A stretch of 64,000 nt of DNA from Escherichia coli (GTDB taxonomy: Bacteria > Pseudomonadota > Gammaproteobacteria > Enterobacterales > Enterobacteriaceae). The position numbers and the translations under genes are program-made. Below are positions 31,527-32,327 of this stretch, in pieces. The stretch is from NCBI RefSeq assembly GCF_041886205.1, contig NZ_CP169029.1. One strand, written 5' to 3'. Positions within the stretch are counted from its first letter, which is position 1, and every line of letters starts with the position of its first letter. The notes beneath the pieces were generated by a model that saw only the letters and a list, made by a program, of their open reading frames with translations, did not search any database and had not been told where the DNA came from.

Positions 31527-32327
31527 GTGACAGAACCGTTAACCGAAACCCCTGAACTATCCGCGAAATATGCCTGGTTTTTTGATCTCGATGGAACGCT
31601 GGCGGAAATCAAACCGCATCCCGATCAGGTCGTCGTGCCTGACAACATTCTGCAAGGACTACAGCTACTGGCAACCGCAAGTGATGGTGCATTGGCATTG
31701 ATATCAGGGCGCTCAATGGTGGAGCTTGACGCACTGGCAAAACCTTATCGCTTCCCGTTAGCGGGCGTGCATGGGGCGGAGCGCCGTGACATCAATGGTA
31801 AAACACATATCGTTCATCTGCCGGATGCGATTGCGCGTGATATTAGCGTGCAACTGCATACGGTCATCGCCCAGTATCCCGGTGCGGAGCTGGAGACGAA
31901 AGGGATGGCCTTTGCGCTGCATTATCGTCAGGCTCCGCAGCATGAAGACGCATTAATGACATTAGCGCAACGTATTACTCAGATCTGGCCACAAATGGCG
32001 TTACAGCAGGGAAAGTGTGTTGTCGAGATCAAACCGAGAGGTACCAGTAAAGGTGAGGCGATTGCAGCTTTTATGCAGGAAGCTCCCTTTATCGGGCGAA
32101 CGCCCGTATTTCTGGGCGATGATTTAACCGATGAATCTGGCTTCGCAGCCGTTAACCGGCTGGGCGGAATGTCAGTAAAAATTGGCACAGGTGCAACTCA
32201 GGCATCATGGCGACTGGCGGGTGTGCCGGATGTCTGGAGCTGGCTTGAAATGATAACCACCGCATTACAACAAAAAAGAGAAAATAACAGGAGTGATGAC
32301 TATGAGTCGTTTAGTCGTAGTATCTAA
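31527..32327 (+). CDS. otsB: trehalose-6-phosphate phosphatase OtsB
   Basis: ORF 31470-32327; start at GTG 31527 ([27 protein letters not shown] motif) giving 266 aa; overlaps otsA by 26 nt. Confidence 0.9.

Follow-up and report, generated by a model that had tools for sequence, protein, structure and literature searches.

The 26-nt out-of-frame overlap of otsB and otsA in Escherichia coli and its two junction states among enterobacterial species

In Escherichia coli the otsA start codon is annotated inside the 3′-end of otsB in another reading frame, which raises the questions of whether so long an overlap is genuine or comes from a misplaced otsA start, why it has this length, and whether it couples the translation of two enzymes of one pathway. 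The analyzed DNA, a stretch of 64,000 nt hereafter called the window, is E. coli chromosome covering fliH to aspS, and shows 100% identity to strain wlxctx60 in the two parts compared (window 1-24000 and 31300-33800).

The overlapping genes and the length of the overlap

By direct reading, the otsB frame ends with ...AAC AGG AGT GAT GAC TAT GAG TCG TTT AGT CGT AGT ATC TAA, and the otsA frame from 32302 begins with ATG AGT CGT TTA GTC GTA GTA TCT AAC CGG (Table 1). An overlap of 26 nt in different frames, as had been proposed from the letters of the window, is thus borne out by the sequence itself and by the PGAP annotation of both the identical strain and another strain; the conventional starts of the two genes, on which that proposal had been made conditional, are upheld as well, by the PGAP boundaries, the full-length family-model matches and the conserved otsA ATG. 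The sequence-only reading had further called the overlap unusually long against 1-8 nt elsewhere in the window. The otsB-otsA overlap is indeed the longest, but the 14-nt case of yecF/yecU had been missed: the 13 same-strand overlaps annotated by PGAP in the window measure 1, 1, 4 (six pairs), 8 (three pairs), 14 and 26 nt. Among overlapping gene pairs, more than 80% share <30 bp (PMC12548453), and 26 nt falls in the tail of the length distribution without being abnormal, as is common for this frame relationship (PMC3887535, PMC12548453). Nor is the overlap a matter of chance, as it is fixed deterministically by the two reading frames; it is its conservation that exceeds chance.

Both products were assigned by family models and structures. 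OtsB scored 539 bits against NCBIfam PRK10187 (NF007560), above the equivalog cut-off of 327 and over residues 1-266 of 266, and 306 bits against TIGR00685 at residues 12-244; the Salmonella OtsB structure 6UPB (267 aa) could be aligned with it end to end, and the first otsB codon is Val (GTG) in 21 of the 25 other genera aligned. OtsA scored 1045.6 bits against NCBIfam PRK10117 (NF007513), above the equivalog cut-off of 759 and over residues 1-474 of 474. Its 474-aa sequence is identical to those of PDB 2WTX and 1UQT, and PDB 1GZ5 begins at Ser2. From these matches OtsB is classified as a HAD-IIB trehalose-6-phosphate phosphatase and OtsA as a GT20 trehalose-6-phosphate synthase. The window OtsB corresponds to WP_001299673.1, and compared with K-12, strain-level substitutions were found in OtsB only.

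Table 1. Features of the otsB-otsA junction, and the second-longest same-strand overlap, in window coordinates
Feature	Position	Strand	Description
yecF/yecU overlap	18085-18098		14 nt, same-strand; PGAP
otsB Shine-Dalgarno GGAGG	31514..31518	+	8 nt before the GTG start; anti-SD duplex -11.7 kcal/mol, stronger than that of otsA
otsB CDS	31527..32327	+	trehalose-6-phosphate phosphatase, 266 aa, GTG start, TAA stop; PGAP annotation of identical strain
otsB C-terminal tail	32247..32324	+	residues 241-266; variable Q/K/E-rich linker followed by what reads as a peptide shadow of the otsA RBS and first codons
otsA Shine-Dalgarno AGGAG	32289..32293	+	within otsB codons Arg-Ser, 8 nt before ATG; anti-SD duplex -6.9 kcal/mol
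In-frame GTG 32293 and ATG 32296	32293..32298	+	upstream of the otsA start; Shine-Dalgarno spacer of only 0-1 nt
ATGA motif	32302..32305	+	TGA 32303-32305 is the alternative landing stop; outside the otsB frame in E. coli
otsB/otsA overlap	32302..32327	+	26 nt; read as M S R L V V V S N in otsA (codons 1-9) and as Y E S F S R S I plus stop in the different frame of otsB
otsA CDS	32302..33726	+	trehalose-6-phosphate synthase, 474 aa, ATG start; PGAP annotation
otsB stop TAA	32325..32327	+	third base of otsA Ser8 (TCT) and first two bases of Asn9 (AAC)

Two landing stops and the junction across species

A 26-nt overlap closed by the same TAA (Ser8 TCT plus Asn9 AAY) was found in 74 of the 78 enterobacterial species loci carrying both genes, a count that includes one locus (L066) for which the script returned 27 owing to an unrelated frameshift deeper in otsA, its junction being unchanged; this state was kept although whole-OtsB identity falls to about 57-60%. 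The other four loci, from two Pantoea-like strains, Yokenella and a single Enterobacteriaceae metagenome genome, overlap by 4 nt at ATGA, as do the outgroups Rahnella (Yersiniaceae) and Ralstonia (Betaproteobacteria), and a 13-nt overlap was found in Acinetobacter. The otsA 5′-end is near-fixed as ATG AGT CGY TTA GTN GTN GTN TCT AAY and holds just two out-of-frame stops, TGA (+2 to +4) and TAA (+24 to +26), so that the frame in which otsB arrives sets the length of the overlap. Rahnella and E. coli alike possess both landing stops in separate frames, TGA at +4 and TAA at +26. Past the TAA, the E. coli otsB frame meets its next stop, a TGA, at 32445, 40 codons on.

Comparison of related genera in opposite states located the frame changes. 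Mixta, in the 26-nt state, and the 4-nt Pantoea-like strains match almost completely in the 30 nt that precede the ATG and are distinguished by a 5-nt indel in a CAAGACAAGAC repeat; Yokenella (4 nt) and Trabulsiella (26 nt) differ by 14 nt, and in Yokenella Ser8 is TCG, by which the unused TAA is destroyed. Both indel lengths, 5 and 14 nt, are 2 mod 3, as this particular change of frame requires. In a neighbour-joining tree of OtsA the outgroups had the 4-nt state, which also appeared at two nested positions within the 26-nt clade. The 4-nt form is thus probably ancestral, with at least three or four switches between the states, as judged from a tree that is of OtsA itself and has few outgroups, two of those on plasmids or megaplasmids. 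This two-state (4 or 26 nt) junction with indel-driven switching is the only, and small, addition to what was known of the locus.

The region in which these indels act is the C-terminal tail of OtsB. In an alignment of 26 OtsB sequences W239 is the last invariant residue, and length and composition are variable beyond it; the TIGR00685 phosphatase model stops at residue 244, and the frame-switching 5-nt and 14-nt indels of the other genera map to the tail region. AlphaFold2 run on the OtsB alignment gave a mean pLDDT of 87 for the core and pLDDT <50 for residues 257-266, which include the eight overlap-encoded residues. Changes in the overlap that are synonymous for otsA commonly produce radical changes in the OtsB tail (F/L, S/R, S/G, I/L and Y/H/N/D), and in the species with the 4-nt form the tail is absent, with OtsB being 253-261 aa long. 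Because this peptide is variable, of low pLDDT, radically substituted and missing in the 4-nt species, the apparent conservation of ...RRDGYESLSRSI is best read as a shadow of the otsA Shine-Dalgarno sequence (AGG AG encoding Arg-Arg/Ser) and of the first otsA codons.

The stop in use, on the other hand, appears to be under selection. Ser8 is TCT in 65/65 ungapped species in the 26-nt state, an invariance that is partly definitional within this class and in its valid form means that the stop is retained by every species sampled in this frame, while the other TCN serines of otsA display 1.5-2.0 bits of third-position entropy. Likewise, four-fold-site entropy was 0.70 bits in the overlap (5 sites) versus 1.57 bits in codons 10-140 (36 sites; Mann-Whitney one-sided p = 0.0007), with an abrupt change at codon 10. 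The simplest reading of these alignments would be that purifying selection against a 40-residue OtsB extension keeps the TAA; selection that acts on initiation regions in general may also lower the synonymous variation of codons 2-9, in a manner inseparable here.

We propose the following course for the junction. The otsA 5′-end would be held nearly fixed by the conserved OtsA N-terminus, while the variable, predicted-disordered otsB tail would traverse the otsA Shine-Dalgarno sequence and, depending on its arrival frame, run into the 4-nt or the 26-nt stop. A non-multiple-of-three indel presumably took the enterobacterial lineage from the 4-nt to the 26-nt form, and the TAA would thereafter have been preserved by purifying selection, its loss adding 40 residues to OtsB. 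So understood, the locus would be a clean natural example of fixed out-of-frame stops (+4 and +26) in a conserved downstream 5′-end between which disordered-tail indels toggle, and of selection guarding the stop in use at a position where changes are synonymous in the downstream gene.

Translation of OtsA

In our judgement it is quite probable that this is the ordinary annotated otsBA junction with both boundaries right, at which the overlap is a by-product of the reading frames and OtsA is mainly initiated independently. Most OtsA would be translated de novo from a conserved Shine-Dalgarno sequence of its own that lies in A-rich, unstructured surroundings, and the ribosomes ending otsB would contribute little by reinitiation. 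An anti-SD duplex with the 16S rRNA 3′-end was predicted for otsA in 82/82 loci tested (-6.4 to -12.7 kcal/mol), with a spacer that is mostly 7 nt by the script's counting in these 82 loci, and the sequence just ahead of the otsA Shine-Dalgarno motif is rich in A and unstructured.

The overlap could instead serve coupling, one of the two explanations put forward from the sequence alone: ribosomes terminating at 32325-32327 would go back about 23 nt, reinitiate at the otsA ATG and so fix the enzyme ratio. OtsB and OtsA act consecutively, the 26-nt state is persistent across Enterobacteriaceae, the two genes adjoin tightly in most prokaryotes, with a median distance of -1 and a first quartile of -13 for OtsB-then-OtsA pairs in 115 genomes (PMC10666635 Table S4), and backward scanning of post-termination ribosomes has been modelled by Tian and Salis (PMC4538824), all of which fit such a role. 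The distance itself does not. Termination-reinitiation is efficient at -4 and -1, and in the synthetic operons of the same study, which are reporter constructs other than otsBA, it falls off past -10, with an 11.6-fold loss at 25-nt overlaps, so that the authors advise overlaps >=25 nt to avoid coupling (PMC4538824); in native E. coli pairs the distance dependence of coupling is steep as well (PMC10666635). At -26, the otsB stop lies outside the stop-start proximity expected for reinitiation (-4, -1, up to about +6). Protein levels point the same way. The label-free proteome of BW25113 lists about 255 copies of OtsA and about 42 of OtsB per cell (PMC6544118 Table S3), an ~6-fold difference that rests on 4 and 2 peptides in one dataset and could reflect protein stability, an internal promoter or mRNA processing; reinitiation cannot raise the downstream protein above the upstream one, and hence reinitiation alone cannot give this ratio. 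The strong, well-spaced otsA Shine-Dalgarno sequence in 82/82 loci also speaks against dependence on otsB, and the several lineage switches between 4 and 26 nt suggest that the exact distance is of little importance. Thus, termination-reinitiation is not supported as the main mechanism and would in its classical form be unlikely, and we regard an overlap that serves coupling as unlikely overall, while residual coupling, or interference by ribosomes crossing the otsA start, may occur.

Coupling through the unfolding of an inhibitory structure by otsB ribosomes is likewise unsupported by the predictions, because the junction was without stable or conserved structure. Its folding was no better than that of shuffled sequence (z-scores +0.40 and -0.60), and the consensus of 22 genera reached only -2.48 kcal/mol, with no compensatory pairs and the Shine-Dalgarno sequence left unpaired. 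As a candidate for a hairpin hiding the otsA start, a weak local one (-10.1 kcal/mol over 70 nt) includes the AUG; it was rejected for being no better than shuffled sequence and having no covariation. An internal sigma-70 promoter for otsA within otsB was rejected also, the only candidate being a single weak 9/12 match at 31786-31813 and the number of matches being within shuffle expectation. At the gathering threshold Rfam gave six hits in the window, all outside 31300-33900 and none at the junction.

The length of the overlap may alternatively be adaptive in itself, either through a functional OtsB C-terminal peptide (Y-E-S-L/F-S-R-S-I, acting in stability or OtsA contact) or through insulation of OtsA translation. 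That 74/78 species keep the state, with the TAA invariant and synonymous variation lowered in the overlap, is what such a benefit would leave behind, and a long overlap is predicted to minimise coupling (PMC4538824), fitting the unequal protein levels. Yet wherever otsA varies synonymously the peptide accepts radical replacements, and it is disordered by prediction and missing in the 4-nt species; the invariant T is explained by avoidance of the 40-residue extension, and repeated switches in both directions point to near-neutrality. An adaptive 26-nt form is therefore improbable. We put equally little weight on the more specific idea of an insulator actively maintained in Enterobacteriaceae, by which a stop deep in otsA would suppress reinitiation and let OtsA be set independently and higher. 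Were the insulator idea right, ribosomes passing over the otsA start would interfere to a tunable degree, and by recurrent toggling between the 4-nt and 26-nt forms evolution could simply switch the ratio of two enzymes whose pathway has a potentially toxic intermediate.

The otsA start and known otsBA junctions

Long overlaps are sometimes start-codon mispredictions, and OtsA might start downstream of the otsB stop, or at ATG 32296 or GTG 32293. An alternative otsA start had been offered as the other explanation of the overlap, and on the sequence evidence it does not stand. The otsA start was ATG in 81/81 loci that include it (the window, 77 further species loci, and Rahnella, Ralstonia and Acinetobacter), outgroups included, with a Shine-Dalgarno sequence at workable spacer, and the OtsA N-terminus together with its ATG is conserved as far as Ralstonia. 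Downstream, the codon inventory contains no in-frame ATG, GTG or TTG between codon 1 and codon 56, which is GTG, and the ATT at codon 11 is without a Shine-Dalgarno sequence. Any start beyond the otsB frame would lose strand beta-1, and a start at codon 56 would also lose Arg9, Gly22 and Trp40, which contact the substrates in glucose-6-phosphate and UDP-glucose binding (PMC1769515; PMC3441724); Arg9 in the Met-less numbering of the structures is codon 10, at 32329-32331. Upstream, in-frame ATG 32296 and GTG 32293 do exist, and 'GATGRCT' is recurrent upstream of the start in many genera, but these codons stand too close to the Shine-Dalgarno sequence (Table 1), are missing from many genera, e.g. 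Buttiauxella, Lelliottia and Rahnella, and would lengthen the overlap, which makes them unlikely as otsA starts. The crystallised OtsA constructs share the annotated N-terminus. The start-site and N-terminomics supplements of PMC4909307, PMC13245402 and PMC5576327 contain no otsA entry. From its conservation, its Shine-Dalgarno spacing and the codon inventory, ATG 32302 is almost certainly the true otsA start, and an annotation artefact is very improbable; with a conserved start, a ribosome binding site and no viable alternative outside the overlap, the arrangement would qualify as a genuine same-strand out-of-frame overlap and not a start misprediction.

An OtsB-OtsA fusion enzyme made by programmed +1 frameshifting at CAA AAA AGA (32271-32279) in the A-rich tail of otsB is scarcely credible: between 32257 and the ATG the otsA frame stays open, so that a +1 slip would fuse the proteins, and a run of six A lies at 32272-32277, but six A are short for ribosome sliding, the run is not conserved in position and is absent from some genera (CAACAACAACAA takes its place in Enterobacter and Lelliottia), a stimulatory structure was not found at the junction, and no reports of an OtsB-OtsA fusion product were found.

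The ordinary junction that we favour is close to described systems. The ATGA 4-nt systems (Huber et al. 2019, 2023; otsBA of Rahnella, Ralstonia, Pantoea-like strains and Yokenella) are alike in gene order, in the ATGA and in a Shine-Dalgarno sequence inside the otsB end, whereas the E. coli otsB frame is shifted, with the TGA out of frame, and runs to the TAA at +26, outside the range of efficient reinitiation. The 'phase 1' 3n+2 overlaps of Fonseca, Harris and Posada 2014, in which the upstream gene likewise extends to the first chance stop, are typically long, having no stop built into the start codon, and selection is not needed to explain them (PMC3887535); unlike in their model, the otsB extension presumably arose by a frame-changing tail indel and not by a stop-codon point mutation, and the landing stop then came under purifying selection. 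The bicistronic operons of Tian and Salis 2015 at distance -25 share an out-of-frame overlap of ~25 nt and a ribosome binding site in the upstream CDS, but theirs are reporter constructs; the two natural otsBA states could serve to test overlap length against translational coupling in a native operon.

The 26-nt otsB-otsA overlap is already known, long annotated, conserved and mechanistically ordinary, being neither a new feature nor an annotation error. Its significance is small: a long-standing annotation is upheld, and the overlap needs no special explanation. K-12 otsBA (b1897/b1896; GenBank, RefSeq, EcoCyc) comprises the same genes with the same 26-nt overlap and a junction without differences. 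The K-12 coordinates, 1978212-1979636 for otsA and 1979611-1980411 for otsB (PMC6544118 Table S3), give 26 nt, and the entry for this pair in Table S2 of PMC10666635 gives a distance of -26. Within the species, 4518 of 5417 complete E. coli genomes, BL21 among them, carry an identical 80-nt junction, and the rest match it at >=95% identity.

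Start codons and putative mRNA cleavage at otsBA

Upstream of the otsA start, two in-frame codons, a GTG and an ATG, offer themselves as alternative starts, and a 'GATGRCT'-like sequence was repeatedly seen at this place in many genera. That sequence follows the otsA Shine-Dalgarno sequence by only 0-2 nt, and for this reason it probably does not serve as an otsA start. At the other end of the operon, the ORF finder lengthened otsB to an ATG at 31470, yielding a protein of 285 aa. No Shine-Dalgarno sequence was found for this ATG, and the hexamer TATACT (31461-31466), which resembles a promoter -10 element, precedes it by 4 nt. 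The annotated otsB start of E. coli at 31527 is a GTG, and Val (GTG) is likewise the first codon in 21 of the 25 other genera aligned.

The otsB tail also contains ACAACA at 32267-32272. Table 1 of a MazF-regulon study (PMC5001579) includes two cleaved ACA sites, one located 32 nt before the start of otsA and the other 31 nt before that of otsB. If true, the putative cleavage before otsA would produce an otsA-only mRNA that retains its own Shine-Dalgarno sequence.

Junctions and same-strand overlaps elsewhere

A third junction form, with an overlap of 13 nt, was found in a plasmid-borne otsBA of Acinetobacter (locus L087, 1501-1513), where otsB stops at the TAA within ATG TCT AAA TTA; other lineages therefore possess landing stops of their own. 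In Citrobacter amalonaticus AUH_CA_2023_1 (locus L066, 2537-2545), one additional C in the C-run at otsA codons 13-15 shifts the otsA frame, which reflects an assembly error at the homopolymer or else marks this otsA as a pseudogene, and apart from this frameshift the junction has the normal 26-nt form.

The sequence-only reading had put the overlaps elsewhere in the window at 1-8 nt, a range exceeded in the PGAP annotation by the 14-nt overlap of yecF with the small-protein gene yecU, the second longest among the window's same-strand overlaps. In strain ET745 (locus L001), the overlap amounts to 17 nt for mzaC/mzaD and 14 nt for mzaD/mzaE. At 1229-10429 of this locus, an MZA anti-phage island of five genes, mzaA-E, lies upstream of yecA, and the strain additionally has a restriction endonuclease gene; neither is present in the window.

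Features located in the window
Feature	Position	Strand	Remark
In-frame GTG and ATG	32293-32298		3 and 2 codons upstream of otsA start
yecF/yecU overlap	18085-18098	-	14 nt; PGAP
MicL sRNA	54391-54698	+	Rfam, gathering level
C0465 RNA	40322-40399	-	Rfam, gathering level
ES036 (CssrF) sRNA	58633-58675	-	Rfam, gathering level
tRNAs (n=3)	21799-22097		Rfam, gathering level

Public records of doubtful assignment

Three of the public records compared (L011, L050 and L082) look mislabelled. The otsBA of the 'Chryseobacterium sp. 18061' record is of the Enterobacteriaceae type, with an OtsA identity of 86%; the 'Citrobacter freundii M-21' record clusters with Atlantibacter, and that of 'Enterobacter cancerogenus M004' with Pantoea. 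In PLSDB, the E. coli 'plasmid' record CP061244.1 (hit H18) is 1.41 Mb long, carries an otsBA 100% identical to that of the window, and looks like chromosomal sequence deposited as a plasmid.
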